Below are positions 1,538-61,486 of a stretch of 64,000 nt of DNA, piece after piece (the first letter of the stretch is position 1; every line of letters starts with the position of its first letter). The stretch comes from a virus (lineage: Duplodnaviria > Caudoviricetes). Below the pieces are notes generated by a model. The model was not told the origin of the DNA, did no database searches, and was given only the letters and a program-made list of their open reading frames with translations. Location: the IMG/VR virus record IMGVR_UViG_3300013426_000014, positions 205,323 to 269,322 of that record; one strand, 5' to 3'. Made by a program: the position numbers and the translations under genes.

Positions 1538-1902
1538 GCCTTCGTAGTTTAACGGTAGAACAATGGTCTTTGAGAATGTTGAATACAGTTTGTATATGAT
1601 GTGTATGAATGCTAGCATTCATCCAGATCTTTATATAGAGTGTATTTGACACAATTGGAGCTTGCAAATCGAAAGGTTTGCAATGGACATGATGATAACG
1701 TTGAACCCGTAACAGGTCACGCTGACGGTAACGACGTCGGAACGGTAGATTTGCCGGCCGCGAGAGAGTAGATAATCATGCACCTGTAGCGATTGATTTC
1801 GTATGGTGAATACGTACTCCAGACCACAACGATTTTTGTCGGCATGGTAACATGCGTGGTAAGCAAAACCATTAAGTGTGGGTTCGAATCCTACCGAAGG
1901 TG
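1538..1902 (+). tRNA. Opal-suppressor tRNA (anticodon TCA, probably Trp) interrupted by a group I intron
   Basis: Exon 1 1538-1570 (GCCTTCG...ATGGTCTT) plus exon 2 1864-1902 (CAAAACCAT...GTTCGAAT...CGAAGGTG) join to ATGGT-CTTCAAA-ACCAT; G73 discriminator. Confidence 0.9.
1571..1863 (+). mobile_element. Group I self-splicing intron, 293 nt, no homing ORF
   Basis: Exon ends in U and intron ends in G; IGS TTGGAG 1655-1660; P3 CATGAT/ATCATG; P4 ACGTTG/CGACGT; P7 GAGAGTA/TACTCC; P9 GCATG-GTAA-CATGC. Confidence 0.9.
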
Positions 1903-1936
1903 CGAATATTAACAGACAGAATTAGATTTATTGATT

Positions 1937-22768: not shown

Positions 22769-23893
22769 ATGATGAACTGATATAATTCTTATAATATTCC
22801 ATTGTCGGAAGGTTTTGACATGTCGAACATGTCGGATTCTGACTATACCGACACATTCGCCGACGCGGACAACAACGCTGTGCGTGACGCTGCGGTGAAC
22901 GCATTTATCGCGGCCTGTGTCGAAGCGAATGACGAATCGGTCAAACTACAGTCCGGTAAATATTGTCTCGCTCAGATACAATTTTGTTCAAACGCAGAAA
23001 AATGAAAGGGATTTGAATATCAAGGTATATTAAGATATCCGTCAGATGATAGGATCGTGAATATCGATGAGGACGGTTTACGTGCGATCACCAGGGCGGA
23101 ATATGATACTGACGGTATTCAGATTATCATTGATCCGGAAAAAGTCGGGCAATTGCCTGGACGGATTTACAGTCTGAGCTTACGCATCGGATCCGGAATT
23201 AAATTTCCTATAGAGTGATCATCGATTTCATTATCCGGCCGTGATGTAGGCAGGAAGTACGCGCTTAAATTGTCTGTGATTCCGTCTTCCGACAGAAAAT
23301 TGTCATGTATGCCGAAACGGGTTGTCGGTAATTTCATACTTTTGGCGTCAGAAGGTCCGGTCGGACTGTATAGACATCCGATGAAATCATACGATGGATG
23401 CCCGGAATATGTTGCAGGTAATTGCACAATCGAATATGGGGCATGATGTAAGGATCCATTCCCACGTGATTTTACAGGATGTCCAAAATATGTCGGCGGT
23501 AATTTTACGGTATTGCTGAATCCATATAATGGCGCGGACTCGTTTCATAAAACGTTCGAGTCCGGCACTGGACTGCCTATTGAAATCGGAGGTCATGCAG
23601 ATCTTCAATACATACGGGATCTTGTTAAAAGGTCAAAGAATGGCGGGCTGATATCTTTATGTCCAGATGGGATGCGAAGGAGTTGAAAGTCATGCACATT
23701 GTTCATACCGTATAATAATTATTATGAAGTCCGTACAAACGGAAAATACAAGGGCGTTCCTATTGACGATAAGGTCGCGGGTAAAAAGCTTAACATAGAT
23801 GACGGCAAAATCAGTATATTGCTTGATGACATCAATATATCAGATAAAGCATGGATTGTTTATTTCACTCCCGGATTATCAAGAAAGCGTTAA
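22769..23893 (+). CDS. FD-motif family LRR-like protein (5 TGA=Trp)
   Basis: Single frame interrupted only by TGA; LSEGFDMSNMSDSDYTDTF; GCP.YV.GN repeats. Confidence 0.85.
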
Positions 23894-23903
23894 TAAATTG
23901 ATT

Positions 23904-25280
23904 ATGAAACTATATAACATTAAATCTGGATTGAATTTATCAAATCAAAGGATAACTGAGGATTTTGATCTGTCCAGAGAAGATGACGCAGACTGAACCG
24001 ACGCCATGTCGGACTCCGATGATGAAGCGATGGAGTTTTATACGTTTGTCACGACATTAAGATCTGCTGTACAACTATATGTACAGAACGAGGATGGTAA
24101 AGCTGTATATAAAAAAGGAACGGATCCGTCGCTCGATATATTGTTCAAAACATCTGTGACTGGAACAAACGCGGATGGATATGACGTGCGGTTGTTTTCT
24201 TGTCCGGCTGCTAATCAACTACTTTCGAGTATACATGGCAGAGCCGCTGCCGAAAATATGTATAATACCCACAGTGAACATACTTATATAGTAAGAGCAC
24301 GGCAGGTGCTGATCTGTCTGGATCTTTCCGCCCTGCCGGCGAATTTTCCGGTATGACGTCTTCCTCGACAGAAGGTTGATGGTTTCAATGTCATGCATAT
24401 GTTATATGTAATACCGTCTGCAGACGGCTCTTTACGTGGGATGCCGGAATTTATTGCCGGTAATGTATATATAGGCAAAGAGGAAGAAGAGAAAGAGGAA
24501 GAAGTTGGACCATTGGAAAAAGAGATATTATGACCAATGGATGCATCAGTGCGTCCAGTTCGGTCGATGACAGGATCGCCGCAAATAGTTGAAGGCAATT
24601 TCCGGGCGGTTATTATATGTCCTGATTCCAGTATGGTATCGTCTGATATTCTGAACGGATCACCGAAATGGGTTACTGGAATTTTTAGAATTATAGGGTT
24701 AAACAGGATTGATTGACCGGCATATAACTCATTTCTGTGAGATTCGGACGGTGCCATCCGGCCGGCGTTCACAGATGGTGTAAGCCGGATGTACGGTCAA
24801 ATTTACATAGACATACTGCATCCGGGTGTTGATTCATCAGCAATAGATTTATCAACAATAAAATCAGATGAGCGAACAAAGTGAACAGATTATATAGAGT
24901 TTGAACAATACAGTTATCGTTGTAGACTAACACATATAATGTTTCCTGATACTATTGTATTAGGTTGCATATGACATATTAAAATATATGGAGATCCAGA
25001 TGATACGGCACGATGATTGAAGAAAATCAATATTGATACACGAATTAACGAAGGTTTCGACATGTCGGATATGTCAGATATCGACTATACTGAAACGTTC
25101 GCGGACGCGGATCATGAGGCGCAGATGGTCAATAACTTTCTTAACGCGTTGTCGCACGATATCATTGAACTCGCACCGTTTTCAATGATATATCACAATC
25201 CGGAGTACCGACAGTTTACAGCGAAATCTACCGGAAGGATCAAATCACGTGCCGCCGCGAAAAAGTCGTCAGTATGATAG
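23904..25280 (+). CDS. FD-motif family protein running into a second unit (about 9 TGA)
   Basis: DAD*TDAMSD matches ENDWTDTMSD; SFL*D..PAFTDGVSR matches SFLWD..PAFTDGVSR; TAR*LKKINIDTRINEGFD. Confidence 0.8.
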
Positions 25281-45034: not shown

Positions 45035-45494
45035 CGCTCCGCATCCTTCTCCACGGGAAAACGGTCATGTTGAAATGATCGCTCCATGGTTTCGTCCGCC
45101 GCATGTATTCGACAAGCCCGCACAAAGTGATAGATCCTTCGCGGACCATCGTCCTGTTCCATTTACACATGTCGTGCAGCATGTCGGCGGCGTGCATACT
45201 GTGCCGCGACCTGTACCACCTACAGAACCTGCACCGGCCGGTCCGTCTCGCCGAGCCGGGCGTCATGTTCTCCATCTTGAACGGCGAACATTTCGAGTCA
45301 CCGTACTCGTCCGACTCCGCGCGCGGCGCGCACCATTCCGGACGCAGGACCATTGCGTCCGTGTACGGATCGGTGTCAACCACGACCCGCGCGCCGGCGG
45401 CGTTCCTGCCTTTTATCCCGGTCATGACGATGTCACCGGGTTTCGGATCAGACCGACGGATGGCCTCCGCGGTTTTCGCGTATATAATTTTCAT
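45024..45494 (-). CDS. PxWC-family protein
   Basis: PEWC...C...CRFC. Confidence 0.7.
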   Translation of the reverse strand: MKIIYAKTAEAIRRSDPKPGDIVMTGIKGRNAAGARVVVDTDPYTDAMVLRPEWCAPRAESDEYGDSKCSPFKMENMTPGSARRTGRCRFCRWYRSRHSMHAADMLHDMCKWNRTMVREGSITLCGLVEYMRRTKPWSDHFNMTVFPWRRMRSGEI

Positions 45495-46054: not shown

Positions 46055-46668
46055 ACCGCATGGTTTTTGTAAAGTCTCTGTGGTCTCCACGCGTCCCGGG
46101 ATCCGGTCAACGTCTCGTAAAGCACCGTCGGTATGAGTCTCGTGTCACACATATCGCGCCACTTCATACGCTCAAGCGCCGGGCGCGGGATATTCATGTA
46201 AACGTTTATGGCATGAAACATCGACTGGACTATAAGGTTATAGTTTCTTCTGTTGTTCAACGGACAGCGCATGCAGCGCGTGTACCGCACCGGCGCGCGG
46301 TCCTCCAGACATCCGTCGAGATATGAGTAAAGATGCGCCGCCGTCTTTTCCTGACTTCCGGCGCCGGAATTTCCATGCGCCTCCGCCTTGTGATCCGATA
46401 TGAATCTCGACTCGCCCTTAATCGCGCGGCAGACTTGCGGCGCGGAACGCGGCCGTACGGCGTCGCACCATTCCGGGACGGAACGGACCGGCACCATATC
46501 CGAGCTGAACGCAGTGTACCTGTCCAACACGTACGGATTCGTTATCGATCTCGACCTGAATCCGGCGCGGCGCCGTCCGCGGACCGCCGACACGACCGGG
46601 TCGTAACCGTTATACTCGACCCGCTCCGTCATCTGATCCACCGGGCCGTATGTTGTATTATCAATCAT
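46051..46668 (-). CDS. PxWC-family protein
   Basis: PEWC...C...RYTRCMRC...NYN. Confidence 0.7.
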   Translation of the reverse strand: MIDNTTYGPVDQMTERVEYNGYDPVVSAVRGRRRAGFRSRSITNPYVLDRYTAFSSDMVPVRSVPEWCDAVRPRSAPQVCRAIKGESRFISDHKAEAHGNSGAGSQEKTAAHLYSYLDGCLEDRAPVRYTRCMRCPLNNRRNYNLIVQSMFHAINVYMNIPRPALERMKWRDMCDTRLIPTVLYETLTGSRDAWRPQRLYKNHAV

Positions 46669-46727
46669 GCAGCGAATATAGCGATAAAAAACGTAAATTA
46701 AAAGCGGAACGTGAAATTTTTTCGTTC

Positions 46728-47297
46728 CTATATTTTCCTGCCGCGCCGCCACATGGCCGACGAAATAAAATCGACGACATACTCCGGCCACGACACGTCG
46801 CCGTACTTATCACCGGGATCGCGCTCTACACGATACATGTCATATAATGAGCTGTAATGTGACAGCAAATCCCGGACGGACAGGTTGTAGTTCCTGTTCA
46901 GCCCGCATCGCATGCATTTCTCCGATATCCGGGCGGGGATAATCCCGCTGCGGAAAACCGGTTTGAACCCGTCCGCGTACGCGGCGTCGAACGCCATCAT
47001 GCTGCACACGTGCCGCCCGTCGAACGCCGCGTGCAGATGTCCGTAATCCCGGGAGTCGAGCCCGTCCAGCGCCTTGCACCACTCCGGCACCCACGCGCAC
47101 AAACATTTCTCGGCCGGACCCATTATGACCGGAACGGATCCGTAACCCGGCCGGCGCCGTCCCCTGACCCGCCGGATTCTTTCCGCGGCGGCGTCAGGGT
47201 CGGGACATCCGGTCCACATCACGGACCGGACGAACGGGACAGCCGACGCCGCCGTGTCGTTCATGTTCGCGGTGGTGATCCTTTTCAATACTATCAT
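46728..47297 (-). CDS. PxWC-family protein
   Basis: RGRRRPGYGS; PEWC; CMRC..NRNYN. Confidence 0.7.
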   Translation of the reverse strand: MIVLKRITTANMNDTAASAVPFVRSVMWTGCPDPDAAAERIRRVRGRRRPGYGSVPVIMGPAEKCLCAWVPEWCKALDGLDSRDYGHLHAAFDGRHVCSMMAFDAAYADGFKPVFRSGIIPARISEKCMRCGLNRNYNLSVRDLLSHYSSLYDMYRVERDPGDKYGDVSWPEYVVDFISSAMWRRGRKI

Positions 47298-47722
47298 TGC
47301 CCCGTCCTTTTGTTGTTTATTATGTCCATCGCCGTCCTTCTGACCCTGTGGACTTCAATTTCCGCCGCGGCGCGCCTGGCCTTCGCCATCACCGCCGTGT
47401 TATAACCGGATTTCATCGCGCATCCGCAGCAGAACGCAGCATGCAGCCGGACGCTCTCGCACATGTTCGAATTCATGACGAACTTCTGCTCGACGCCGGC
47501 CGGCGGCTCGTGGTGCATGGCATAACCGCCCGCGCCGAGCGCGCGCCATACGTGAATGATCCTGTCGCACCGCCGGCCGGGCGGAGTGAGCGTGTCTTTC
47601 GACGTCAGCTTGCACCAGACAGGCGGCGGGACCGACCCCGGACCATACAGCGCGCCGAAACGGAAACGGACGGCGTCGTCCGTCGTGTATACAGCTGTCG
47701 TATGTTTCTTATTATATCTCAT
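47294..47722 (-). CDS. PxWC-family protein
   Basis: PVWC...C...CCGC..KSGYN. Confidence 0.7.
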   Translation of the reverse strand: MRYNKKHTTAVYTTDDAVRFRFGALYGPGSVPPPVWCKLTSKDTLTPPGRRCDRIIHVWRALGAGGYAMHHEPPAGVEQKFVMNSNMCESVRLHAAFCCGCAMKSGYNTAVMAKARRAAAEIEVHRVRRTAMDIINNKRTGQ

Positions 47723-47734
47723 ATCAAATCAATA

Positions 47735-48124
47735 TCATCGCACAGGCATACCGCGGCGTCCGCGCCGTGCCGCGGCGCGTTCCAAATCCCGCCTTCTGAA
47801 GAACGACATCAGTCCGATGTTATACCCGCGCTTGTACCTGCATACCACGCATGACGACGGGTAAAGCACCATGTCATGCATGCCGCGCATATCCGCCGCG
47901 GCCGCGATTTCGTCCGGGATCCGCCGGTAGGCGGCCGCCGGACAGAACGGATAAGGCGCCGGTGATCCCGCGATGATCCGTCCGCCGTCGCACCACGCCG
48001 GAACCGACGCCGAACCGTTCCACATGTCACACATGTCAGCGCAGACAAAATGCCGCCTCGCGGTGTTTTCCGGCAGGGAACCGTCGAGAAACCCGGCGGT
48101 GATGCTCGTGAACCCGTCAATCAT
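47735..48124 (-). CDS. PxWC-family protein
   Basis: PAWC...YPFC...CVVC.YKRGYN. Confidence 0.7.
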   Translation of the reverse strand: MIDGFTSITAGFLDGSLPENTARRHFVCADMCDMWNGSASVPAWCDGGRIIAGSPAPYPFCPAAAYRRIPDEIAAAADMRGMHDMVLYPSSCVVCRYKRGYNIGLMSFFRRRDLERAAARRGRRGMPVR

Positions 48125-48641
48125 CTGCCGTCAAGTTTTTCGAGATCCTCCACCCGTCGAACAGGAACGGCTCTATCTGCCGCGGCCAATCCGGCACGCC
48201 GTCCGTGAACTTGTCGGCATGCTGGGACCAAAAACGCTCCACTTGCCGGAACCGTCCCCGAAGCTCCATATACCCGCCGACGTTCTTGTACGCGCCGCGG
48301 CAAAAGTCGCAGCCCTTCCGTATACAGTCGGTGTATCTGCATCCGCAGGACGAAGGGTCCAGAGCGGACTCCTTCATAATACAGTCACATGACAAGGCGG
48401 TCCTGCTCCCCATTATCCGGTCCGGGACCGGATCCTGACGGAAGAATAAGCACCATTCTGGAAAATTTCTGTACACGATATCGCCGTCCGCGTCCTGGAC
48501 CGCCCTTGTGCCGGAGCCGTAACCGGGGCGGCGTCTTCCTTTCCGCGCGGTGATCACGCTGATCTTCTTCTCCTTGAGCTGCCGGCGGGCGCGCTCAACA
48601 AGTTCCTCCGCCGGTATCTTGTATTGTGATGTTCCCTCCAT
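48117..48641 (-). CDS. PxWC-family protein
   Basis: KGRRRPGYGS; PEWC; RYTDC...GAYK. Confidence 0.7.
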   Translation of the reverse strand: MEGTSQYKIPAEELVERARRQLKEKKISVITARKGRRRPGYGSGTRAVQDADGDIVYRNFPEWCLFFRQDPVPDRIMGSRTALSCDCIMKESALDPSSCGCRYTDCIRKGCDFCRGAYKNVGGYMELRGRFRQVERFWSQHADKFTDGVPDWPRQIEPFLFDGWRISKNLTADD

Positions 48642-48660
48642 TCTGAAAGTAAATTTACGA

Positions 48661-49167
48661 TTATACAGGTTCCGCGGAACGGACGTGCCGTCTGATGTTA
48701 TACATCCGTCCCACCATATCTCGCACGGAGTCTGTCCCGCCGAAATAATATTTCATATCGGACGCGGTCTTCAGGTTATACAGCCGGCTCGCCTTGCACC
48801 GGAGACAGCCCCTGACAGGGGACGCGCCGGAATTCGGCCGGCCGTCCCCTGACATGCTGTACATATCGTTCTCCGCGGCGATCTCCGGACAGGTGTATAT
48901 GACGGCGCCGTTGTATTCGCGGAGCAGCTGGTCGTCCTTCAACCGGCACCATTCCGGCGTCAGTATCGTCTTGACCCGGACGTACATCCCGCATGGCAGC
49001 GCGGCATTCCGGTCCATCTCGTCATAGCTGAAATACACCGCGTCCGTGATCGCCGTCCGTCTGCCCGGCGCGGTCCTGCCTTTCATCATGGTCAGCTCCG
49101 AGAGCCGTGAGAGCCGCCTGACCGCCTCGCGTTCGGCGTCCCGATTTGTTTCGCATACCGTCGTCAT
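48661..49167 (-). CDS. PxWC-family protein
   Basis: PEWC...C...CLRC...LYN. Confidence 0.7.
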   Translation of the reverse strand: MTTVCETNRDAEREAVRRLSRLSELTMMKGRTAPGRRTAITDAVYFSYDEMDRNAALPCGMYVRVKTILTPEWCRLKDDQLLREYNGAVIYTCPEIAAENDMYSMSGDGRPNSGASPVRGCLRCKASRLYNLKTASDMKYYFGGTDSVRDMVGRMYNIRRHVRSAEPV

Positions 49168-49179
49168 ATAATCCGCATC

Positions 49180-49545
49180 CTAACCCCCGAACTCGACCGG
49201 GTATTTCGCGAACAGCCGCGCCGCGCGCCACCGGACCGACGTGTTGTACCCGTTCCTTTTCTCGCACGACATGCAGCGGATGTACGATCCTTCCGTCGCC
49301 CGCCCGCCCTGCCGCGCGGATGATGTGGTGCCGGCGATCATACGGACGAGCATGTCGCAGTGGAAGCGGACAGGCCAGCCGCCGTCAATGTCGTCAAAGA
49401 ATCGGTCATGACACCACACGGGAAGCCGGCCGTACCGGCACCATCTCTCCTGCAAGCCGACCTTGACCGCCGGGTCGTGATATGTCCGCGTCCTTATGAC
49501 GCGGCCTTCGAATTCATTCATTTCCTTCATGATCATTTTATGCAA
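49180..49545 (-). CDS. PxWC-family protein
   Basis: PVWC...C...CMSC...GYN. Confidence 0.7.
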   Translation of the reverse strand: MHKMIMKEMNEFEGRVIRTRTYHDPAVKVGLQERWCRYGRLPVWCHDRFFDDIDGGWPVRFHCDMLVRMIAGTTSSARQGGRATEGSYIRCMSCEKRNGYNTSVRWRAARLFAKYPVEFGG

Positions 49546-49972
49546 GCCGGCCCGCGGGGATTCCCCGCCGCCATTTCCTTCCGAACATCACCATATCCGC
49601 GCCCGCGGGTTTGAACACGCCCGGCGGCAGGGGTCTGATGAACGCCGAACCCGACGAGCCGAACCCCCTGCCGTAGAAATCCATATCCCACATCCGCCGG
49701 CACGCGACCATGTTATAGACGCTGTAGAACCGGCAGAACTTACACCTGACGCACTGGCGGGGCGTCACGTAACAGAACGCGTCCGTTCCGTTCTCGTCGT
49801 ACAGGGCCATGCAGTCATACACGGGGGCGGAAACACGGTCCGCCGTCACCGGCCGCCCGTTCGAACACCATTCCGGGACCGTGATCGTATTCCCGGCGCC
49901 GGTTCTCATCCGTATGAGTCTCCTTCCCGCCGCCGACCGTCCCGGCTCTCGTATGATCTCAATTATATTCAT
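49538..49972 (-). CDS. PxWC-family protein, first in operon
   Basis: PEWC...C...CVRC; promoter 49977. Confidence 0.7.
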   Translation of the reverse strand: MNIIEIIREPGRSAAGRRLIRMRTGAGNTITVPEWCSNGRPVTADRVSAPVYDCMALYDENGTDAFCYVTPRQCVRCKFCRFYSVYNMVACRRMWDMDFYGRGFGSSGSAFIRPLPPGVFKPAGADMVMFGRKWRRGIPAGRLA

Positions 49973-50053
49973 GACGCAAATATAATAAAATTCCGGGAAA
50001 CATGGAAACGTTTCCCGGGATTTTTTTAGCGTTTGTTTTGCTTCCCCGCCGGT

Positions 50054-51196
50054 TTACCTTACCGTGTTCGCGACTGTCACGGCGCGGAGGACCGCGGCCT
50101 TGTTATACGACATCATCTCGATGATAATCCCCTCCCCGCACGAGCAGTCGTCAGCTATCAATTCGGCCAGCCCGTTATATTTTCCGGACCCCGGCGCGCC
50201 GATGTTCACCATCTCCGTCTGCCGATTCGCGCCACTCGCTCTGTCCTTCGCCACGTCCGGCGACATAAGCGCAATCTGCCCGCCGATCTCGCGCCGGACG
50301 CCGTCGCCGAACAGCGGGACGCATCTGCCGTCGTCATCCCACGGCAGAACACGCGTCCCGCACAGTAACAGGGAATTGCCGATCCGCCGCGGCGCGCCCT
50401 TCGCCGACGTCAATGAGCTGCAACATGAGAAATCGGCGAAGTCGCGGACGACATCCGGCGATCCCGTCAGGTCGTTGACCTCTGTCCGCCATGCGGCGCC
50501 GCCGGCTGACGTATGTGACACGAACCTCGCGACACCGAAGTCGTCACACTCCCGCGGCGCGCCCTCAAACGACCGCAGTGGACGGAATCCGGATTCCGGG
50601 CCGGCCGGATCATAGTAGAATATATAATACGGCTTCTCGCGCGGCGGCGCCGGAACGATCATATAACTCCCGTCCACGTACGACGGCGACCCGACGAGCG
50701 TCCCGTCCGCGCGCGGCATCGCGTACACCCAGAAGCTGCTGCTGTTATGATTTATCCCGTCAGGATAAACCGGGACAATCGCGTACTCGTGTATATTCGC
50801 CGGGATCTTGTCGAGATCCAGTATGACGCCGGTGAAGCCGCCGCGGACCGTGACATACACACAGAACATGTCATCCGTCCTGTCGAACCGTATCCTGTGA
50901 CCGAACATGTTCCCGCGCCGCCGGATTGACGTCGACATGTTACAATCTGAATCAAAATAATAACATACCGCCGGGACGAGCGACCGTTCGAATTCGGCCA
51001 TCTCCACGGCGGCCTGATCCATGTCGCCGAACGTGTCCGTGTAGTCGACGTCGGACATGTCCGAAAAGTCGAACCCCTCGCGTATTGCCGCGCCGACAGA
51101 TGTCCGCGCGTCCGCGTCCCATATGTATGTGTCTGTCATGCGGTCCGCCATGATATTCGTCATGTCCTGTGTTTTGTTTGTTACAGCCGCGGCCAT
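50054..51196 (-). CDS. FD-motif family LRR-like protein
   Basis: IREGFDFSDMSDVDYTDTF; GSP/GAP repeats. Confidence 0.85.
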   Translation of the reverse strand: MAAAVTNKTQDMTNIMADRMTDTYIWDADARTSVGAAIREGFDFSDMSDVDYTDTFGDMDQAAVEMAEFERSLVPAVCYYFDSDCNMSTSIRRRGNMFGHRIRFDRTDDMFCVYVTVRGGFTGVILDLDKIPANIHEYAIVPVYPDGINHNSSSFWVYAMPRADGTLVGSPSYVDGSYMIVPAPPREKPYYIFYYDPAGPESGFRPLRSFEGAPRECDDFGVARFVSHTSAGGAAWRTEVNDLTGSPDVVRDFADFSCCSSLTSAKGAPRRIGNSLLLCGTRVLPWDDDGRCVPLFGDGVRREIGGQIALMSPDVAKDRASGANRQTEMVNIGAPGSGKYNGLAELIADDCSCGEGIIIEMMSYNKAAVLRAVTVANTVR

Positions 51197-51651
51197 TTGA
51201 TCACCTCTTGCACATTTTTTATTCCGTCGACGGAGGACGGCGCGCCTAATGTGTCGTCATAATTTTTCGTGATGATCTTGACGCAAACACAGCCGGACCG
51301 CGATTTTATCCGCCACGGGACGCCGTACTTCTCTGTGAACCGCCTCAGCCCGCCGGCGCCGTCCTTTAGCAGGACACTGCAGTACAGGACCGTGATCCAT
51401 CGGTCCATGGAGAGGACCTTGTCCGCGTCCCACGTCATGATCCGGCCGGCGTCGGGATCGTCGTCCATGCTGATCAGATCCGACGATCCGACGTCGATCC
51501 GGTCCGCCAGCGCCGCGTTCGTGATCCGCATGTCACGCCGGAGCGCGTCCGCGAAAGCCGACACCATCTCCGCGTTCTCGTCAATACTGGAAAATGTATC
51601 AGTGTAGTCGACGTCCGACATGCCGGATAAATCAATTTTCTCGTTTAACAT
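51181..51651 (-). CDS. FD-motif family short protein, paralog of 4270
   Basis: LNEKIDLSGMSDVDYTDTF; ALRRDM.ITN; TWDA.KV. Confidence 0.85.
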   Translation of the reverse strand: MLNEKIDLSGMSDVDYTDTFSSIDENAEMVSAFADALRRDMRITNAALADRIDVGSSDLISMDDDPDAGRIMTWDADKVLSMDRWITVLYCSVLLKDGAGGLRRFTEKYGVPWRIKSRSGCVCVKIITKNYDDTLGAPSSVDGIKNVQEVIKWPRL

Positions 51652-51676
51652 TTATAAAAACCGAATAATTTTAATC

Positions 51677-54640
51677 TTATACCAGCCCGTTCATCACGCA
51701 CAGCCATTTCGCGCACGCGGCCGCGTCGCCGTACACCGTCACGCGCGCCCGGGCGGCGGACAGATCCGGGAACATCATGCCGTACAGTCCCTGCGGCCAG
51801 TTCCGCGGGGAGCCGGAGCCCAGCCACATGGACGACGACTCCGACTTCCGCCGGCCGGCGACGTTCGCGCCCGGATGCGGGACGTCGACTTTGATCTCGC
51901 CGCACCGCCGGGACACCCCGTCCGTGAACGCCGGCACGACGTTCCCCTTGCCGTCCCACAGGAACGACGTCGTCGGACGCTGCATCTTCCTCGCATCCGG
52001 GAACGTCACGGTGAAGTTGTTGCCGACCCGTTCCGGCGCGCCGTCGAGGAAGCCCGGGCCGTAAGCGAGTCTCGGACCCGGTGCCTCCATCACGCATTCG
52101 ATGTTGCCGGTGACCTCCTTCGGCGCGCCGGCAAGCGACCTGCAGACAGACGGCCTGAGGCCGATGACGTCCGTCAGGCTCCCGTACACGCCGGCGTTCA
52201 CGTCGCCGCCGACGAATTCGGGCGAGCCGATCAGCGAGCCGAAACGCTTGCCTGTTCCCGGCCCGGCCGGCAGTATGAACAGCTGGCATTTCGTTATGCC
52301 CGGCCCGGGCTCGAGCCGCCAGCGAGCGGACTTCGACCATGACGCCGGCGCCGCCTTGAGATCCAGCGCCGCCTCGGCGATCCTGCCGTCAGACGGGGCC
52401 GCGAACGCCGGTGTGTCGAACATCGAGGTCGTCATGACGCCCGGCGCGTCGGACAGCGTGACCGTCCATCCGTCCGCGGACGAGCCGGACACCGCGCGGG
52501 CGAACAGCGGGTCGAGGACGGGGTCGGACCCCCTGACCCACCCGTTCTTCCCGGCGGACGTGCGGACCTGCAAAAGGAGCGCCTTCCGGAGGCCGGCGGT
52601 GAACGCAGACTTCTCCGCCGCGGCCTGGTCCATGTCGCTGAAAGTATCCGTGTAGTCGACGTCGGACATGTCTGAGAAGTCGAAGCCCTCCGACACGGCT
52701 TTCCGCCGGGACGGTTTTCCGTCCTTTCCGGACGGCTCAGCCGGCCGCGTGTCGATACATATGAGACCGGACGGGGCGTCAATCCCTTTCATCGCGTTCA
52801 TGTAAACCGTCCTTCAGTATGACGTCGACGCGTCGGCGATCCCGGCTTCTTTTCATCTGTCCTTTCCGGCGGTGACGGTGAAAACACGGAATTTCCCGTT
52901 CTTCTCGCGTACCACGCGCGGCAGCGTGCGATCGGCGGACCTGACGTTCACATTGCCGCCGACACGCGCCCGGCCGGGCGCCGGGAGGATCCTCTCGCAC
53001 GCGCCGTCCCGGCCGGCCCGCGGGGCCGCGATGACGCCGGCCACATCGAGGTCGCCGCCGATGAACGCCGGCAGTCCGGACATGAAGTCCGGACCCTTCT
53101 GCCGCGAGCTGTTATTCGGGTCATATATGTACCTGAACTCCAGCGTCACCGACCCGTCGACATACTCCGGCGCGCCGGCGAGCGACGTCAGGGAGTCTGA
53201 CTCGACATAGAGCGACGCGCCGAGGTCCAGCCTCCGCGGAGCGCCGGACATCGACTTCACCGCCGAGTTGACACGCACGTCAATGCCGGCCACCTCCGCC
53301 GGCGCGCCGTGAAGGTCCCCCGCCGCCGACGGGTTGAGCGTGATCGTGACGTCGTCGATCAGGGCGGTTACATCGCCGACGACCCCTCCGTTATCGAACA
53401 CCCGTCCCGCTTTCAGCGACCATCCCCCGTACGCGTCGGCCAGCCGGGCGAACCCGCCGCGGGACAGATCGATCCCGATATTGATCTCGTACGGCGCGTA
53501 CTCGGCGCCGTTCAGATCGACGTCGAGCCTGACGATCACATTGCCGCCGCCGTCGCGACTGAGCGGGTCGCCGTTGTCGTCCCGTGCCGTGAGGATCACC
53601 TTGACGTCGATGTCGGCGTCATCGCGAAGATCGCTGCCATAGTTGATCATATCCGATTCGCACGCCTTCTCCACCGCGACACACGGCCCCTCGCGGTCGT
53701 CGATATCGCTCAGCGTGTCGGTGTAGTCGACATCGGACCTGTCAGAGAAGTCGAATCCCTCATTAATCCCGCCGCTCCCGCCGCGGCGTTTCATATGGTC
53801 GCGCGACGCCTTCTGATAGCACGGATCTCACTGCGTGCTGTCTAAATAATCGGCAGGCAGTTCGCCATGTATGTCGCTGAGCGACCGGATCTCCCGCGGG
53901 ACAAGATTCGCCGGGAAAAGATCCGCGCAATCCGCCCCGCCTGTGATCACATACAGCCTGATATCGGTCGGCGCCGGCGCGCCGAACTGATCGCCGATGT
54001 CAATCAGCGATCACGTCATTCATTTCGGAAGGCGGTCCACCGTCCATCGATTGAACGACGCGCCGTACATCGCGGCGATCGCGCGCCGCATTGACGACCG
54101 CGCGGCGGCAGACCGGAAATCCATGATGAGCGGGAACGAATCCCATGATGTCAACGTCTTCACCTCGTCGGTGATGAAGAACCTGATCCCCCAATTGTCA
54201 CGTGGAAGGGAATAAGTCGACGTCGTCATCCATATGGACTGTTTGCTCTTAATTTGGCGGCCGGCCGGCGAGAGCGGCGTCATCGTCAGGCCGGGCGCGC
54301 GGGAGATCATCTCGGCGGCGCTTGCCGCCGTCATCAGTTCGACCCGCCCGGACGACTGGATGAACATCGGATCGAACACCGGACTGTCACATCTTATCCA
54401 CTTGACATGTTTCGGCACATACATACCGCCGGCATTCAACGCCACGCCGGCGTCAGACACCCGCACCCGGGATATCCGCCGCATCCATTTAATGAAAAAT
54501 TCAGGCGCGGCGCGGTATTGCATATCATTGTCATCCATGTCAGACAATGTGTCGGTATAATCGACATCGGACATGTCCGAGAAGTCGAAATCCTCGTTGA
54601 TCTCCCGTCTTCATCCGTGTGTTTTATTACAAGCGTCCAT
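51677..54640 (-). CDS. Three FD-motif units in one frame: 987-aa polyprotein if TGA=Trp, otherwise ORFs 54020-54574, 52853-53794 and 51677-52801
   Basis: Only TGA (54611, 54020, 54011, 53828, 52853, 52814) between ATG 54640 and TAA 51677. Confidence 0.75.
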
Positions 54641-54766
54641 AATAATTTTGTTCTTTTCTTTTTTACCGTTATATAGTAAAAATGAATAACGTAGATATAA
54701 TTATTTAACACGCAAAAAGACGGGCGATTTCATGTCCCGCCCGTCTTTCCTTTCGATGATGCAGTC

Positions 54767-55960
54767 TTACTGCTTCGACAATTTGTCGGACAACTGGATG
54801 AGCATGTTCAGCCCCATCGCGTCCATCGCGGTGCCGCCGGCGTTTCCGGATGATCCGGTCGACACGATCCTCGGCAGCGCGACCTTTGACATCGCCTCCG
54901 CGACGCCGACCCGGGTTTTGTACTCCCACTCGGCCCTCTCCTGCGGGGTGAGGCCGGCCGCGACCTTGAGCCTGTTCGCCTCCGCCTCGGCCTGGCCCTC
55001 GGCGATTATCTTCTTCTTGTCGAACTCTGCCTTCTCAGCGGCGAGCCTTGACACCTCGCGCTCCTGTTCGGCCTTGGTGACGGCGACGGCCTTCGCCTTC
55101 TCCTGCTCCCACCGCGCCCTCGCGGCCGCTGCCTTTCCCTCCTCCTCGGCGCGGATCGACTCCTGCTGGGCGGCGGCGGACTTGGCCTTGCTGGTCTGAA
55201 TGAGCATATTCGCCTCCTGCTGCTGGGCTATCTGGTTGTTGACCTGGTCGGAATATCCTATCTTAGAAATGGAAACCTGCCCTATCTCGAGCCCGTAATA
55301 TCGGAACGGTGACGACTCTGATCTCTTATAGCCGCCCGGGCTGTCCGGGTCCGGGACGAGATCCGCGACCTTCGTCTGCTTCTTCTCGCCGGTGACGGGA
55401 TCCTCCGTCTCGACGACGCGGACGGTGGTCTTGTAGACGCCGTTATTGAGCTGGTCTGTTATGTAGTATATAAGATCGTTCTTTTTCTCCGCGTAGGACT
55501 CGAACGCCGACATGAGCGGTCCGGACGCGTAGATGACCTTGTTGACGGTCTGCTTCACCAGGTCGGTCATGAGCCTGTCCATCCCGTTGTAGTCTGTCTG
55601 TATCCTGGCGAGGTGTTCGACGTCGGTCGGCAGTTTGACCCTGAGCGACCCGTATATGGCGCCGTCGGACGCGTCGTTGAATATCACCTGTATGGGCGAC
55701 CCGATCTGCTCGCCGTTCCCGTCGGACGACCCGAACCACAGCTGCTGCGTCTTGTAATACCTGGTGACGTCGCCGAATCCCTGCCACTTGACGCCGGGCG
55801 TGGTCCAGTAGACCATGCGGCCGGTGAACGGGTACTGGTTGACGACGATCTCCTCGTTCTTCACGTTCTCCCCGAGCTTGCCGACCATGGTCAGGCCGAT
55901 GAGGAGGACGACGCCGAGAATGAGCACGGCGATTTTCTTTGGTGAAACTTTCACTGACAT
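54767..55960 (-). CDS. SPFH/Band 7 membrane protein
   Basis: N-terminal TM, SPFH-like core, Ala/Glu coiled coil; terminator 54714-54750. Confidence 0.8.
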   Translation of the reverse strand: MSVKVSPKKIAVLILGVVLLIGLTMVGKLGENVKNEEIVVNQYPFTGRMVYWTTPGVKWQGFGDVTRYYKTQQLWFGSSDGNGEQIGSPIQVIFNDASDGAIYGSLRVKLPTDVEHLARIQTDYNGMDRLMTDLVKQTVNKVIYASGPLMSAFESYAEKKNDLIYYITDQLNNGVYKTTVRVVETEDPVTGEKKQTKVADLVPDPDSPGGYKRSESSPFRYYGLEIGQVSISKIGYSDQVNNQIAQQQEANMLIQTSKAKSAAAQQESIRAEEEGKAAAARARWEQEKAKAVAVTKAEQEREVSRLAAEKAEFDKKKIIAEGQAEAEANRLKVAAGLTPQERAEWEYKTRVGVAEAMSKVALPRIVSTGSSGNAGGTAMDAMGLNMLIQLSDKLSKQ

Positions 55961-56057
55961 TCTTTTCTTCTGGTTAAAAATGTTGAACAAAAATGAAAAC
56001 AAAAATGAAAGGGGCGGGCGGAAAATCCCGCCCTTTCGCAAGGTGATCCGCCGGGCG

Positions 56058-56336
56058 TTACTCAGACGCCGGCATCTTTTTTCTTTTCCGTTTCGGGACG
56101 GACGCGGTCGTGTCGTCCACCGCCGCCGGTTCCCTCTCCGGCGCCTTGTCCCTGACGGCGTCTTCCTTCCGTGACGGATTCCCGGACGCGAACAGCCCGG
56201 CGAACGGGATCAGCGCGGACCATGACGAGAACCTCTCCCCGTCCGCGTCGACGATCCCGAACATCGCGAGCGCGACGTAACCGTAATACAGAAGCGCGCA
56301 CAGGATGACGGCGCCGATTATGAGCCTGAACACCAT
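56058..56336 (-). CDS. Small membrane protein
   Basis: Hydrophobic N-terminus; WSALIPF. Confidence 0.65.
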   Translation of the reverse strand: MVFRLIIGAVILCALLYYGYVALAMFGIVDADGERFSSWSALIPFAGLFASGNPSRKEDAVRDKAPEREPAAVDDTTASVPKRKRKKMPASE

Positions 56337-56340
56337 ACCG

Positions 56341-57297
56341 CTAGTCCTCCTTGAAAGGGTTGAGCTCAACGGTGTTCGTGTCGACGCCTATCGCCGACCC
56401 CGGCAGCACCTCGTAGAACCAGTCCTCGTCCGGGCCGTAATCCAGACGGGCGAGCTCCGGGTAGGCGGAGTCGATCCAGTCCTCGATCATGCAGGCGGCG
56501 GCGTCGGCCTCGGTGTCGTCGCCGAAGAACCTGCTGTCGTCCTCGGCCGGCAGGGACGCCGGGCGGCGGAAATCCGGGATCAGGATGTCGTGCAGGTAAT
56601 GCACGCCGTGGTCCAGGTAGAGCGGGTTCGGCGTGTGCATCGCCGGGTCCGTGTAGTAGTCCGGGTCCAGTTTCTCGCAGCCGGACGGGTTGACGGTGAT
56701 CATCAGCACCGCCGGGACGGACGGATAGGACGGGACGGACACCTCGCGGGCCGCGGCCTTCTCCGTCAGGACGAGATGGCTGTCCGGCGCGGGCGGATTC
56801 TCCGCGGCCGGGAGCTCGGTCTCGATGCCGAGATCTATCGGCTCCTCGCGGTCATCGTCCTCGCTCACGCCGGCCAGCGCGCTGATGAACGCCTTCGCGA
56901 CATCGCTGACGAGATCGGCGACGGTGTACTCCTCATCGGCGTTTCCGTCATCATCCCGCTTTTTCACGTCGTCGGAGTTGGCGCGCCTGCCGTTCTCCGC
57001 GTTATAGCGGACCTGCCCCTCGTTGTATTCGGCGTCCGCGGCGTCCGCGGCGGTGTGGACCGACGTCAGCGTCTCGCCGGCGCCGAACTCGATCCTGTCC
57101 TTGAACAGCGACGCCACCGGGACGGCGACGTTCTGGACGTCGGTGTCGAACAGCACAAGCGCGTTATTGGCGTCCGGCTTGACTTCGGTCACGTGGCCGA
57201 GCCTGATCGAAGGGACACCCGCCTTGGCGCCGGTCACGAACCAGACCTTGTCGCCGGCCTTCACGTCTTTGAAAATCTTCTTCTTAATGTCTTCCAT
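56341..57297 (-). CDS. Acidic hypothetical protein
   Basis: 318-aa ORF. Confidence 0.7.
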   Translation of the reverse strand: MEDIKKKIFKDVKAGDKVWFVTGAKAGVPSIRLGHVTEVKPDANNALVLFDTDVQNVAVPVASLFKDRIEFGAGETLTSVHTAADAADAEYNEGQVRYNAENGRRANSDDVKKRDDDGNADEEYTVADLVSDVAKAFISALAGVSEDDDREEPIDLGIETELPAAENPPAPDSHLVLTEKAAAREVSVPSYPSVPAVLMITVNPSGCEKLDPDYYTDPAMHTPNPLYLDHGVHYLHDILIPDFRRPASLPAEDDSRFFGDDTEADAAACMIEDWIDSAYPELARLDYGPDEDWFYEVLPGSAIGVDTNTVELNPFKED

Positions 57298-57429
57298 TGT
57301 TTGTGAAAACAGTTTTGTTTGTTTTTGAAAGCTAAAGAGTCATTCGCCGGCCTCCGGGCCGCGGCGTTCAGCCCCCGCGCCGTTTCCGCTCCCGGCGGGC
57401 GCGCGCCGGTTTCGCCACTTGTTATCCCG

Positions 57430-58260
57430 TTAGATGTCGCCGTGCGACTCGAACACCCATCCGTCGGACGTGTCGCCGGAGCAGCTGACCGCGAGCGTCC
57501 CGTCCGGGTATCCGGCGTCCTTCGCCTGCTCCGACATCTTCCTTGCGAGCGCGGCGGAGTCGGGGTTGTCGTCCGCCGCCATGTTCACGTACATGTCCTT
57601 GCTCGTCCTGTATTCCTTCCTTCCCTTCTCGTCGAGCGACCCGTACACCGCGACGCCGACGTCTATCGTCTTCCCGTCCGTCCTGACCCACCTGAAACCG
57701 GGATCGTTGTCCGACACGTCGAGCACCCCGCCGATTTTCAGCGGCAGGCCGTCCAGGCTCTTCAGCCTGTTGTTCCTGCAGCTGCAGTTCCCCCTGACAT
57801 ACTCCGGGAAATCAGTGATCTTCTCGACGTCGGAATCAAACATCCACATCGAGCCGCCGACCTTCTTCGGGAACCCGTTGGTCGACTTCAGGTTCTGCCC
57901 GATGATGTATATGTCCTTCCCGATCTCGCCGAACCTGATGTACGGCGGCAGGTCCCCGTCGGTCCTCAGGCTGATGTGGTTGGCGACGTTGATGACGCCG
58001 CCCTCGGCGATCCACCAGTCCGGCCCGCCCTCGACGCCGATGCCGGCGCCCTCGTACTCCGCGGACTCGTCGAGCCTGTCACAGAACACGCAGTGCGTGT
58101 CCATCCATTCGGTGATCGCCTTGACCTCCTGCTCGGCGTCGTTGTCGGACATCGTGTCGGTCCAGTCGTTCTCGTCCATGTTCGACATGTCGAAGGGCGA
58201 CGTCTGCTCCCCGGTGTCGGGGGTCTCGTTCAAATTAAAATCAAAATTTCTCTCTTCCAT
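57430..58260 (-). CDS. FD-motif family LRR-like protein
   Basis: LNE...FDMSNMDENDWTDTMSD; LKSLDGLP.KIGG repeats. Confidence 0.8.
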   Translation of the reverse strand: MEERNFDFNLNETPDTGEQTSPFDMSNMDENDWTDTMSDNDAEQEVKAITEWMDTHCVFCDRLDESAEYEGAGIGVEGGPDWWIAEGGVINVANHISLRTDGDLPPYIRFGEIGKDIYIIGQNLKSTNGFPKKVGGSMWMFDSDVEKITDFPEYVRGNCSCRNNRLKSLDGLPLKIGGVLDVSDNDPGFRWVRTDGKTIDVGVAVYGSLDEKGRKEYRTSKDMYVNMAADDNPDSAALARKMSEQAKDAGYPDGTLAVSCSGDTSDGWVFESHGDI

Positions 58261-58340
58261 ATTATCTGGCGTTAAAATTCATAACGCGAATATAGCGCTT
58301 TCTTTTCATATACGGAAATATTTCCGGAAAAATTTTTTCG

Positions 58341-58649
58341 CTACCACCTGACGATCGGCCAATACGGATCGTCGTACAGCAGCGGCCCGCGGAAGTCGTC
58401 GTACATCGGCAACGCCGCCCACGCCCTGAACCCGGCGAAGCAGTCCGCCGCCCCGTAAAGCAGTATGGACGCGACGGTGAAGAACACAGCCATGCCGTCA
58501 TAAAAGAAATAAGGGATCCCGCCCGCCATGACGGACCCGGCGTCGAGCGCCGCAAGCGCCGCCGCGATCACCGTCATCGTGTCGGCAAGCATCCGGCCGT
58601 TCGTGTACCGGCCATACATATCGCTGTTACATATTTTCCTTTCACTCAT
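58341..58649 (-). CDS. Small membrane protein
   Basis: Two hydrophobic segments. Confidence 0.5.
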   Translation of the reverse strand: MSERKICNSDMYGRYTNGRMLADTMTVIAAALAALDAGSVMAGGIPYFFYDGMAVFFTVASILLYGAADCFAGFRAWAALPMYDDFRGPLLYDDPYWPIVRW

Positions 58650-58677
58650 AAGCTATTGCTCTGTTTTTCCTGTTCTT

Positions 58678-59484
58678 TTATTGCTGAAATCCGCGCCGCG
58701 CCTTCTCCGCCTCCGCCATTATGTCGCGGCCTGACAGTTCGGACACCCGCTTCACCCACCGGACGACCTTCTTGATAAAATCCGGTGTTTCCCGGTCCGG
58801 GATCCACGTCTGATTCGACGGGTCGTCGCTCTCGCCCGCGGCATCGATGTCGTTCCCGTCGGAAATCCACACCCACTCAGCGGGCGTCTCGTATACGGAA
58901 CATATACCCGGGAAGTCCGCCGCGAGCCCCATCCAGCTCTTACATGAACGCGCGTTCGCGTCCTTCCATTCCGCGACGGCGGCGGCAGCCCGCTCCGCCA
59001 GCGGGACCACGCCGTCCATCATCGACGGATACATCGCGGCCGAGTCCGAATCGTACGGCAGGCCGGTCTTCTCGCATTCCTTCCGGATGGCCGACACCCG
59101 GACGATGACGTCACCCATGCGGATTTCCTGTTCCATCTCGTCCTCGACCGATTTCCGGCGGCGGGCATACCCGTCGATCGACGTCCACGGCAGGGCGGCG
59201 TATCCAGCCTTCCTGACGACGCATCTCCTGACGGTGACGAGCGCCGCGCCCCCGCCGGACGACACGAACGACGCCGGCGACCCGTCCGGGTTGACCCACG
59301 ACACGACGCCGTTGTATATGTCCGGCCTCATCGCGGACGCCCTGTCGGCGCCCTGCCGGACAAGCGCGTTCCTCACCTTGGAGACGTTGCCCCCGCACAT
59401 GTACTCGACGTCGCCGTAAAGATCGACGACATACGACCTTGACGTCGGCTCAATCTCTTTCGCGGATGTTTTCGATACAGCCAT
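58678..59484 (-). CDS. Hypothetical protein
   Basis: 268-aa ORF after promoter 59524. Confidence 0.7.
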   Translation of the reverse strand: MAVSKTSAKEIEPTSRSYVVDLYGDVEYMCGGNVSKVRNALVRQGADRASAMRPDIYNGVVSWVNPDGSPASFVSSGGGAALVTVRRCVVRKAGYAALPWTSIDGYARRRKSVEDEMEQEIRMGDVIVRVSAIRKECEKTGLPYDSDSAAMYPSMMDGVVPLAERAAAAVAEWKDANARSCKSWMGLAADFPGICSVYETPAEWVWISDGNDIDAAGESDDPSNQTWIPDRETPDFIKKVVRWVKRVSELSGRDIMAEAEKARRGFQQ

Positions 59485-60139
59485 ATCTGATTCGTCTTTA
59501 TAATCTTTTTGACTTTGACAACACGAATATAGCGCTTTCTTTTTGAATACGGAAATTTATTTTGAAAAAATATTTCATCGGCGGAAGGCGCATAATAAAA
59601 AGAAAGGGACGGAATGAAACGACATCCGCCCCGAAAGAAACGAAAATGAACCGGGGCGGGTCCTACAGCATGCCGAACGCGGCAAGCAGCGTGGCCGCGA
59701 TCAGCGCGATCACGCCGGCTCCGACGCCGAAGCCGATGAACGCCATCATCCCGTCTGACCCCCGCCCCCCGGAACAGCCTTCGTCCCCGTCATAAAATTC
59801 AGGTCTCATGACTTCGGCTGTTTCTTTTTCAGGGTTATTTATCCGGCGGGACGGTTTTTATTTATTATATAAAGGAACGCACGCCATGCTCGCGCGTGTT
59901 TCCGCCATGACGCGAGCACTGTATTGGTGCGTCAGTACACTGATACACTGATACACCGGCGCCGAAACATATTAATAAAAGAAGGGCTTTTATATATAAA
60001 AGCCCCCCGCTAATATAGCCGTTTTTTCCGATATACGGAAATTTATTTGATGTCGAAAGGTAGAGGATCCGGCCGATCCGCCGATCATTTCTTCCTGTTT
60101 GGTGTATAAAAGTCCACTGATCAAAAAGTCCGCTCTTTC

Positions 60140-61486
60140 CTACCGGCGGTTCGCGCCGTCCAGCCACGCGGCGAATTCCGCGGCCTTGCCCGGGTCGACA
60201 TACGCCTTGACCCTGACGCCGCCGTCCATCTTCACGCCCGGGAACATCGCCGCCGTCCACGCGCCGGCCGGTATCACGATCTCCGCCGGCTTCGCCTTCT
60301 CGACGCGGCCCATCTCGGACCAGTCGCTGTTATGTCACCAGCCGTTCTTTTCCACCGTCATCCCGGCCGGGACCGCCGCGACCTTCGGCCGGACATTATC
60401 TGGCGCGTTCCGCTCCGGCTGCGCCATGTGGTTATAAGCCCCGCCGGAGATGTCGACGGAAACCGGCTCGCCGACCGTCCCGTCCAGCCTTGCCATTTCC
60501 GTACATTTGTCGCCCCATGATCTGGAGACGCCGTCGGTCAGCGCCGGGGCAATCACTTGCCCGTCCGGTCCTCACAGTGTGTACATCTGGCGTCCGGGCG
60601 TATCGGAGCACATGACCATGACGCCGCCCGCCTTCTTCGGCGCGTGGTTAAACCAGCCGGCGCCGTCTACTGTCGCCAGCAGCTCCGCGTTGTAAACGGA
60701 GAAGACGCCTGTCACCTCCTCCGGCGCGCCATCCAGCGTCCGGAGCCGGGACTTCGCCGAGTACGCGCCCCGGAGAGAACTCCTCACCGGGCCGTCACTG
60801 TCGACATGGACGGTCCCCCGGACGAACCGCGGGCACCCGCGCAAGGACCCGTCCTTTCCGGGGATGACGTTGAGCGCGGTGTTGACCGTCGCCGTTCCCA
60901 TCGCGCCGGAGACGAACTCCCGGACGCCGGCGGATTCGATCCTCCACCGCCCGCCGAACCTTTTCCTCCACGCGGCGGACGCCTTGTCGAGCCTGAGCGT
61001 CATCATGACCCAATACATGCTGTTCGTCATGGCGGTTCTTCTCGCCGAACCGGCCGGAAGATTGCCCGCCGCCTTTTTCGCCCACGGGTTTGTCGTGATG
61101 CCGACGGCAGACACGCCATACGCGGCCGGATCCGCCGGGTCCATCCACCCGGTGATGTCGCTGACATCAAGGGTGATGTCGCCGTTCCCGTCGATCACGC
61201 AGCATCCGATCAGCGCGAGCATCGGATCCTCCACGCTGGTGAGCTTGCCCCATGATCTCGCGACCGGATCAAGCTGCCCGGCGAACCGCCGCTTCCCGGC
61301 GCAGTCCTGCACCCACAACGCAGGCATCAGCCCCTTCGCGAACTCGCTTATCAGCTCCGCGTCCTGGTCCATGTCGCTGAACGTGTCCGTGTAGTCGACA
61401 TCCGACCCGGAGAGGTCGAAACCCTCGTCCAGCCGGCCGGCGTCATATCGCCCGTATCCGTATCCTTCCATTTTGGTCATATTCAT
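60140..61486 (-). CDS. FD-motif family LRR-like protein (2 TGA=Trp)
   Basis: YTL*GPDG..PALTDGVSR matches FLWDGKG..PAFTDGVSR; similarity continues past TGA 60335 to TAG; TATAAATA upstream. Confidence 0.85.

Follow-up and report, generated by a model that had tools for sequence, protein, structure and literature searches.

The cleavage sites of the phage T4 head protease follow the consensus L/I-x-E. Among the proteins processed by this protease, gp21, are Alt and the internal proteins (IPs) IPI, IPII and IPIII, in which a short conserved N-terminal peptide is carried by unrelated, fast-evolving proteins; a hydrophobic-x-Glu site adjoins the peptide, and the genes are linked with a T4-type head module (portal, protease and major capsid protein, MCP) and occupy loci that vary between close strains. 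These traits have counterparts at the locus described here, J, which lies in a window of 64,000 nucleotides, i.e. the last 64 kb of the 269,322-bp IMG/VR virus record IMGVR_UViG_3300013426_000014 (87 % complete by CheckV). J is a single open reading frame (ORF) for three units, J1 to J3, each of which begins with an [ILV]-x-E tripeptide followed by a conserved tag. We consider it somewhat probable that J encodes a tagged polyprotein of head cargo cut by a gp21-type protease. The product is probably a precursor of head-loaded proteins, because each unit follows a likely T4-type head-protease cut site. Unlike the T4 internal proteins, with which they share no sequence similarity, the proteins of this family carry an acidic tag of ~22 residues placed after, not before, the putative cut; the tag is present here in 25 copies, several units are chained into polyproteins, and translation needs TGA to be read as Trp.

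T4 gp21 and its giant-phage homologues cut after the Glu of a short motif and thereby remove targeting propeptides (PMC9026906, PMC5694885, PMC9958956). Such propeptides are found in the giant-phage head or ejection proteins phiKZ gp175 and SPN3US gp245, and the paralogues gp53 and gp54 have identical N-termini (PMC5694885, PMC9026906). The system presented here resembles them as a jumbo phage with paralogous, candidate inner-head families, conserved N-termini on diverged bodies, multiple putative cuts after the Glu of a three-residue motif and a protease with a C-terminal extension. The giant-phage motif is, however, A/S/G-x-E with long propeptides, whereas here it is [ILVM]-(N)-E and the propeptide is short or absent; none of the giant-phage proteins has been described as a polyprotein and the bodies are not homologous. 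In the polyvalent proteins (Iyer et al. 2017, PMC5512222) one polypeptide combines effector-like modules whose packaging and delivery together with the DNA, sometimes followed by proteolytic release, have been predicted. J likewise comprises several modules in one polypeptide, but polyvalent proteins join unrelated enzymatic domains, often with an embedded peptidase, whereas J joins paralogues with the same tag and the head protease is separate.

Longer proteins may also arise by the decoding of a stop codon, as in retroviral gag-pol and in the A1 protein of Qbeta, whose UGA is decoded by tRNA-Trp at a few percent. At J, as with A1, a longer protein is made when UGA is decoded; unlike in read-through systems, the long product is the default, because TGA has been reassigned to sense and occurs as such hundreds of times. 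Gut phages with TGA-to-Trp recoding (code 4) and a phage suppressor tRNA were reportedly described by Borges et al. in 2022, and the present phage resembles them in the genome-wide reading of TGA as Trp, the phage tRNA(UCA) and some abundant or early genes free of TGA. The literature on phage recoding (in general PMC11210395, PMC9523058) is about the code itself and contains no account of tagged cargo units being joined in a code-dependent way. The J system extends the theme of T4 internal proteins and giant-phage propeptides as a new variation.

Organization of the J locus

The J ORF comprises 987 codons in one frame on the minus strand, with six internal TGA codons (codons 10, 207, 210, 271, 596 and 609), no TAA or TAG, and TAA-GAT-TAA at the 3' end (Table 1). 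The first-pass annotation had recognized the single frame and its three units, and this was confirmed; its description of the units as separated only by TGA was not, since five of the six TGA codons are in the leader or within unit tails and only TGA 271 lies near a unit end. The tripeptides INE, INE and VSE were found, as it had reported, before the tags at window positions 54601, 53767 and 52696, and the other forms that it listed (LTE, ITE, LNE, LSE, IRE, LDE and VTE) all occur on further members in the window. No further in-frame ATG, GTG or TTG is present in the leader ahead of the first tag. Tagged J1 therefore needs TGA decoding, because TGA 10 stands between the sole upstream ATG and the tag, and TGA 207 and 210 are inside the unit. 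Translation table 11 splits the region into three ORFs of 184, 313 and 374 aa, the first of which loses half its tag because its start Met falls inside the conserved motif; annotation with code 11 thus breaks one precursor into three unrelated-looking ORFs. The J2 tail, which holds the ATG (52801) of the code-11 ORF for J3, runs into the VSE of J3 without any stop.

The openness of the frame alone is weak evidence for coding, because in GC-rich DNA the off-frames are nearly stop-free; the weight is carried by homology. At the locus (63 % GC) the off-frames contain only 4-7 TAA/TAG per 987 codons, and shuffling of the 148 non-body codons gave P ~0.03 for zero TAA/TAG. The protein P0042, an orthologue of J2 (40 % identity, E 5e-60), aligned stop-free through TGA 596 and 609 and past ATG 52801, and full-length J2 orthologues are represented by P0042 and P0073. 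The last repeat of J1, containing TGA 207 and 210, is another copy of a G-x-P repeat and aligns to an F1 repeat with a TGG-Trp at TGA 207. The GC content at third codon positions (GC3) was 0.69-0.79 through the junction segments, compared with ~0.5 at second positions. The evidence says that these junctions are coding sequence. In both J1 and J2 the tags are intact and the GC3 periodicity is high, with neither TAA/TAG nor a frameshift, and inside the J ORF no promoter-like or terminator-like signal rose above chance. J1 is truncated in comparison with J3-type units and lacks the last ~70 residues of the unit type.

TGA as a tryptophan codon

Coding coverage of the genome rose from 0.875 to 0.938 when only TAA and TAG were counted as stops. 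TAA or TAG ends nearly all long ORFs, and ORFs of 2646-2873 codons contain 12-25 TGA. In a low-GC paralogue of J3 (window 4849-5859, within 4738-5862) all four TGA codons align with TGG-Trp of J3, and in K1, a high-GC member of the family, TGA is found at the conserved Trp of an FLWD-like block. A tRNA-Trp(UCA) split by an intron was detected (Table 1), the sole TGA decoder seen in the record; standard ARAGORN, with no introns allowed, did not find it, and Rfam, at the gathering score, lists no group I intron at 1538-1903 and misses the split tRNA as well. The phage thus combines the two marks of a code-4 recoded phage, TGA at conserved Trp positions and a tRNA with the anticodon UCA. TGA encodes Trp genome-wide, the tagged family included.

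The claim of the first-pass annotation that J arises by TGA read-through was consequently discarded: TGA is a sense codon of the phage code, read genome-wide by tRNA-Trp(UCA), and what had been called read-through is ordinary code-4 translation. Read-through of a leaky stop codon was considered and rejected, since TGA aligns to conserved Trp, occurs 12-25 times per giant ORF, and ORFs end mostly in TAA/TAG. The related proposal that the polyprotein is made only once a suppressor is active holds for tagged J1, owing to TGA 10 and TGA 207/210, and fails for fusion as such, since units of two other ORFs, D and F, are joined stop-free. A TGA is placed between the start ATG and the tag in two tagged ORFs, J (window 54611-54613) and B (leader of B1, genome ~31150); in each case the suppressor tRNA would then be needed for the whole product.

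The GC content is 59-66 % throughout a block of ~30 kb (genome 250-269 kb plus 1-10 kb; window ~45000-64000), compared with 45-50 % elsewhere. Trp codons of the tagged units are mostly TGG within this block (TGA 8/39), and TGA in 33/57 cases in the low-GC units.

The tag and multi-unit proteins

A profile of the tag detected 25 copies in the genome, 24 of them directly after [ILV]-x-E, i.e. a hydrophobic-x-Glu site adjoins the tag in nearly every case at the sequence level; ten have Asn in the middle (P2) position and [ILVM]-N-E is the commonest form of the tripeptide. The tag is acidic/aromatic, and the Glu of the tripeptide is among only four invariant columns. Fifty-three tag-bearing proteins were found among 1.84 billion representative proteins, nearly always with the tag in the first 30 residues, and the family as a whole shows a short conserved N-terminal peptide on otherwise unrelated proteins. 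The linkers ahead of internal tags are flexible and basic. Glu-rich, A-x-E-like strings occur 3-8 residues past the tag in most units.

No Pfam or PHROGs family matched any tagged unit, and there was no homology to the T4 IPs or Alt. An AlphaFold (AF2) model of J3 (predicted local distance difference test score, pLDDT, 81; predicted template modelling score, pTM, 0.82) comprises a low-confidence coil at residues 1-14, a helix from residue 15 and then a beta-rich body. The [ILV]-x-E site is accessible in this model, because tag residues 1-14 form a low-confidence coil before the helix. The body shows a weak likeness to beta-helix/leucine-rich-repeat (LRR) solenoids (best Z 6.2, VIA wide), and Foldseek searches of the PDB and BFVD gave no match at E <= 0.001.

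Four ORFs carry more than one tag: J (three), B (two, joined via one TGA), D and F (two each, joined with no stop of any kind). In this multi-unit architecture the units are devoid of recognisable domains apart from the weak solenoid likeness (Z 6.2). Frame linkage in relatives was judged from predicted proteins. The F1-F2 fusion is kept in P0040 and P0075-77, and the B1-B2 junction is spanned at 59 % identity by the stop-free relatives P0044 and P0074, with Cys opposite the TGA of the present phage; P0074 shares a 120.5-kb ENA contig with P0002. P0028 ends exactly where the D1-D2 linker of D has a TGG-Trp, as expected if TGA stands at that place in the phage of P0028. Unit fusion and fission vary freely among relatives, and between other tagged neighbours the common frame is closed by true TAA stops. 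As far as predicted proteins can tell, multi-unit proteins are a real trait of the tagged family. Conservation of the frame in related phages, which had been proposed as a check, was seen for B1-B2 and F1-F2 and failed for the three-unit linkage of J, whose J1 and J2 are absent from the sister phages. The similar fusion noted earlier at 25014 is real, but the role given there to TGA is not, as the TGA is a conserved C-terminal Trp and no stop is present at the fusion.

The locus is variable and the three-unit chain is not conserved, because J3 is widespread in sister phages (about a dozen variants on ~263-kb sister contigs; orthologues of 52-58 % identity) in which J1 and J2, seen just in the present genome, are missing. 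No homologue of J1 was found outside the present genome. Nothing resembling the 987-aa product was found among database proteins of 542-1728 aa; the lack of fused forms there is uninformative, because the gene calls of the database use code 11. IMG/VR yielded no further tag-bearing record, INPHARED no match to DNA or protein, and a single metagenome scan only two distant contigs with a tag of the MHH type (see below). The nearest MCP relatives were a fragment of 26 % GC that has neither the tag nor TGA use and a 288-kb phage lacking the tagged family.

P0023 has a nine-residue leader identical to that of J2 (window 53768-53794) and INE, followed by a body of only 44 % identity to J2; the shared leader and diverged body suggest that cassettes have been exchanged in or close to the tag. 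Unit F2 ends prematurely behind an A5 run (…GCGAAAAAGTCG…), with a shift near window 25255-25270 and a continuation in another frame, ORF 25145-25909 (+); P0040 and P0077 read straight through this position. Possible causes of the shift are a frameshift mutation, an assembly error and a programmed slip.

The head protease and its putative cut-site motif

The first-pass annotation had called for a gp21-like protease, and one was found beside a cluster of tagged genes and the capsid gene. The match to PF03420 (Peptidase_S77, T4 gp21 family) at genome 27612-27983 (-) reached 45.4 bits (E 8e-13), where the cut-off of the family is 27. The ORF, at genome 26277-28067 with the protease domain in its first ~190 residues, matched phrog_207 (head maturation protease) with E 1e-37 and has a C-terminal extension of ~400 residues; the match to the T4 gp21 structure 5JBL was weak (E 0.009), with GHP and SSR strings opposite the corresponding T4 segments. 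The MCP gene (phrog_138) adjoins the protease gene, the tagged units C1, B1-B2 and A1 are directly upstream of it on the same strand, and a T4-type portal is encoded at genome 53097-54374 (PF07230, E 3e-52). The HK97-type protease PF04586 is absent from the genome. Directly downstream of the MCP gene, an ORF resembling HNH/homing endonucleases (phrog_3339, E 2.5e-21) occupies genome 23221-24330 (-).

Over all code-4 ORFs [ILVM]NE was seen 80 times compared with 39 expected, and the excess lies mainly in five ORFs plus the tags; half of these sites are [ILVM]NES. The protease/scaffold ORF contains seven sites (0.5 expected, p 1.5e-6) and the MCP four (0.5 expected), two of them within 50 residues of the Met; the remaining three ORFs are given in Table 1. 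This enrichment is the pattern that a head-protease cleavage motif would be expected to leave. The [ILVM]NE-rich ORF next to the tail sheath gene (genome 8088-10178) encodes a protein that is basic in its middle part and very acidic, with many Asp and Phe residues, at its C-terminus; it had no PHROG match. It is a candidate scaffold or core protein, possibly a docking partner or substrate.

Proposed mechanism and alternative explanations

In the proposed mechanism, J would be a single late gene of a code-4 jumbo phage, encoding a precursor of 987 residues and ~108 kDa with three paralogous cargo units, each made up of a flexible linker, [ILV]-x-E, the tag and a variable, beta-solenoid-like body. 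Translation of the precursor would have to await the phage tRNA-Trp(UCA). The tag would attach each unit to the prohead core, and cleavage by the head protease after the Glu of [ILV]-x-E would free the units, which keep the tag at the new N-terminus. They would then remain in the head, to serve as internal or ejected proteins in the manner of the T4 IPs and Alt. Packaging and cleavage of the J units are what we infer from sequence, and the overall interpretation of the first-pass annotation was partly supported.

Several observations weigh against this mechanism. The conserved tag is C-terminal to the proposed cut, whereas the T4 targeting peptide is N-terminal and removed; in many proteins just 0-3 residues precede the [ILV]-x-E. 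About a dozen proteins of relatives start exactly at M-N-E or M-F-E; with these starts and the M-LNE of the downstream gene I1, a cut would remove only 3-4 residues. In the MHH subgroup (L036, L037 and P0037) an internal tag follows M-H-H without Glu, and in two ENA contigs (L036:665-1762, L037:134-1102) it sits between an N-domain of ~250 aa and a C-domain of ~90 aa. One tag copy of the present genome, at window 58206 (-) in ORF 57430-58626, has Q-T-S instead of [ILV]-x-E. Because of the M-N-E starts and the MHH subgroup without Glu, the tripeptide may belong to the tag and not just to a cut site. The absence of J1 and J2 from the ~263-kb sister phages at the protein level and the truncation of J1 mean that part of the array could be decaying. 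Finally, TGA is avoided in the genes of the MCP, the sheath and other abundant structural proteins; its decoding may thus be incomplete, in which case shorter products would be made as well.

The first group of these points bears on the idea that the polyprotein is real and not cut at [ILV]-x-E, the tripeptide and acidic motif forming one docking module, N-terminal or internal, on multi-unit proteins that stay intact, as 'polyvalent' proteins may, or are cut elsewhere, e.g. at the A-x-E-like sites. M-N-E is indeed kept in relatives with nothing upstream, the Glu is as invariant as the core of the tag, the MHH tags are internal and have no Glu, and the Glu-rich strings past the tag in most units resemble the A/S/G-x-E preferred by phiKZ/SPN3US-type proteases (PMC5694885). 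An uncut module nevertheless leaves unaccounted for the specific enrichment of [ILVM]NE in the protease/scaffold protein and at the MCP N-terminus, the flexible basic linkers ahead of internal tags, and the free fusion and fission among relatives, which is expected if processing makes the forms equivalent; we regard it as rather unlikely. The avoidance of TGA in highly expressed structural genes would also suit functionally separate genes, with J2 and J3 starting at their own ATGs (53794 and 52801), TGA often acting as a terminator (early in infection or through competition by release factor 2, RF2) and the fusion an incidental minor species. Each of these in-frame ATGs comes shortly past a TGA, AAGGA is 8 nt ahead of the one at 52801, the unit bodies are free of all six TGA, and other neighbours in the family are divided by true same-frame TAA. 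Such an arrangement seems decidedly unlikely, given that the J1 tag needs TGA 10 and the J1 body TGA 207/210 to be decoded, that ATG 52801 falls in a segment matched by the C-terminal tail of the J2 orthologue, that ORFs with 12-25 TGA need efficient decoding, that TGA-free fusions occur in the family and that J contains no internal promoter-like or terminator-like signal above chance.

Decay of a tandem array, in which J1 and perhaps J2 are pseudogene remnants whose frame the GC-rich DNA has left open by chance, J3 alone being of importance, would explain why J1 is without its last ~70 residues and any homologue, why J1 and J2 are missing in sister phages and why the off-frames are nearly stop-free too; F2 is likewise frameshifted elsewhere in the genome. 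Remnants would hardly retain intact tags and high GC3 periodicity with no TAA/TAG or frameshift in J1 or J2, nor would J2 have the full-length orthologues P0042 and P0073, and this explanation appears very improbable.

If the cleaved head-cargo polyprotein is correct, the tag with [ILVM]-(N)-E would provide a sequence rule by which proteins packaged in the head, and probably injected, could be recognized in an uncultured clade of recoded jumbo phages, and the switch of genetic code would be tied directly to the production of virion cargo. Foreign proteins could moreover be loaded into such capsids by means of the tag, as has been done with the T4 targeting sequence. For the variable bodies, a role as anti-defence or host-takeover effectors may be considered. 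A broader proposal, in which the tag acts as a portable signal for head loading with its polarity reversed, kept on the mature cargo and exposed by the upstream cut, with chained effectors gated by TGA in the leader and tails, is possible but doubtful. Were it true, co-packaged injected proteins would appear only after splicing of the intron-split tRNA-Trp(UCA), and gain, loss and fusion of units would be unconstrained, since fused and separate forms become equivalent once the protease has acted.

Table 1 Features of the J locus and of related or neighbouring genes (window positions unless marked genome)
Feature	Position	Strand	Remarks
J ORF	51677..54640	-	ATG 54640 to TAA 51677-51679, second TAA two codons on; TGA = Trp
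J leader	54602..54640	-	13 codons; TGA at codon 10 (54611-54613)
Unit J1	53831..54601	-	INE, tag and body; TGA 207 (54020-54022) and TGA 210 (54011-54013) in G-x-P repeat of the tail
TGA 271	53828-53830	-	directly after unit J1
Linker J1-J2	53768..53827	-	Arg/Gly/Ser-rich, stops just before INE; holds ATG 53794 of code-11 ORF
Unit J2	52697..53767	-	INE, tag, body and C-terminal tail
TGAs of J2 tail	TGA 596 (52853-52855), TGA 609 (52814-52816)	-	in-frame
Unit J3	51680..52696	-	VSE, tag and beta-rich, solenoid-like body
Tag copy 1	54527..54601	-	[ILV]-x-E (INE), then acidic FD...DYTDT... motif
Tag copy 2	53693..53767	-	INE before motif
Tag copy 3	52622..52696	-	VSE before motif
Tagged genes I1 and H1	50057..51651	-	directly downstream of J; I1 = 51651-51184, starts M-LNE-tag; H1 tag at 51085
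SPFH/Band-7 gene	54767-56041		phrog_11908
F ORF	23799..25280	+	F1 fused to tag F2 (tag at 25044) without stop; nearby TGA = conserved C-terminal Trp of F1
tRNA-Trp(UCA)	1538..1903	+	293-nt intron in anticodon loop; ARAGORN with introns allowed, both halves read by eye
[ILVM]NE-rich ORF	genome 8088-10178	-	7 [ILVM]NE(S), 0.5 expected; 696 aa, no TGA
[ILVM]NE-rich ORF	genome 19074-22082		beside head module
[ILVM]NE-rich ORF	genome 79108-83199		large ORF

Signals around the tagged genes

Just past the SPFH/Band-7 gene, a GC-rich hairpin of 8 bp followed by T5 is present on the minus strand at window 54711-54745. Between it and the J ATG lies an AT-rich stretch; with this arrangement, J appears to open a transcription unit of its own. 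Candidates for the T4 late-promoter consensus TATAAATA were noted ahead of several tagged genes, e.g. at window 4130-4160 and 61470-61500 and at genome 76440-76470; such strings are not clearly placed ahead of the J ORF. The MCP and protease genes are preceded by [GA]ATAAATA.

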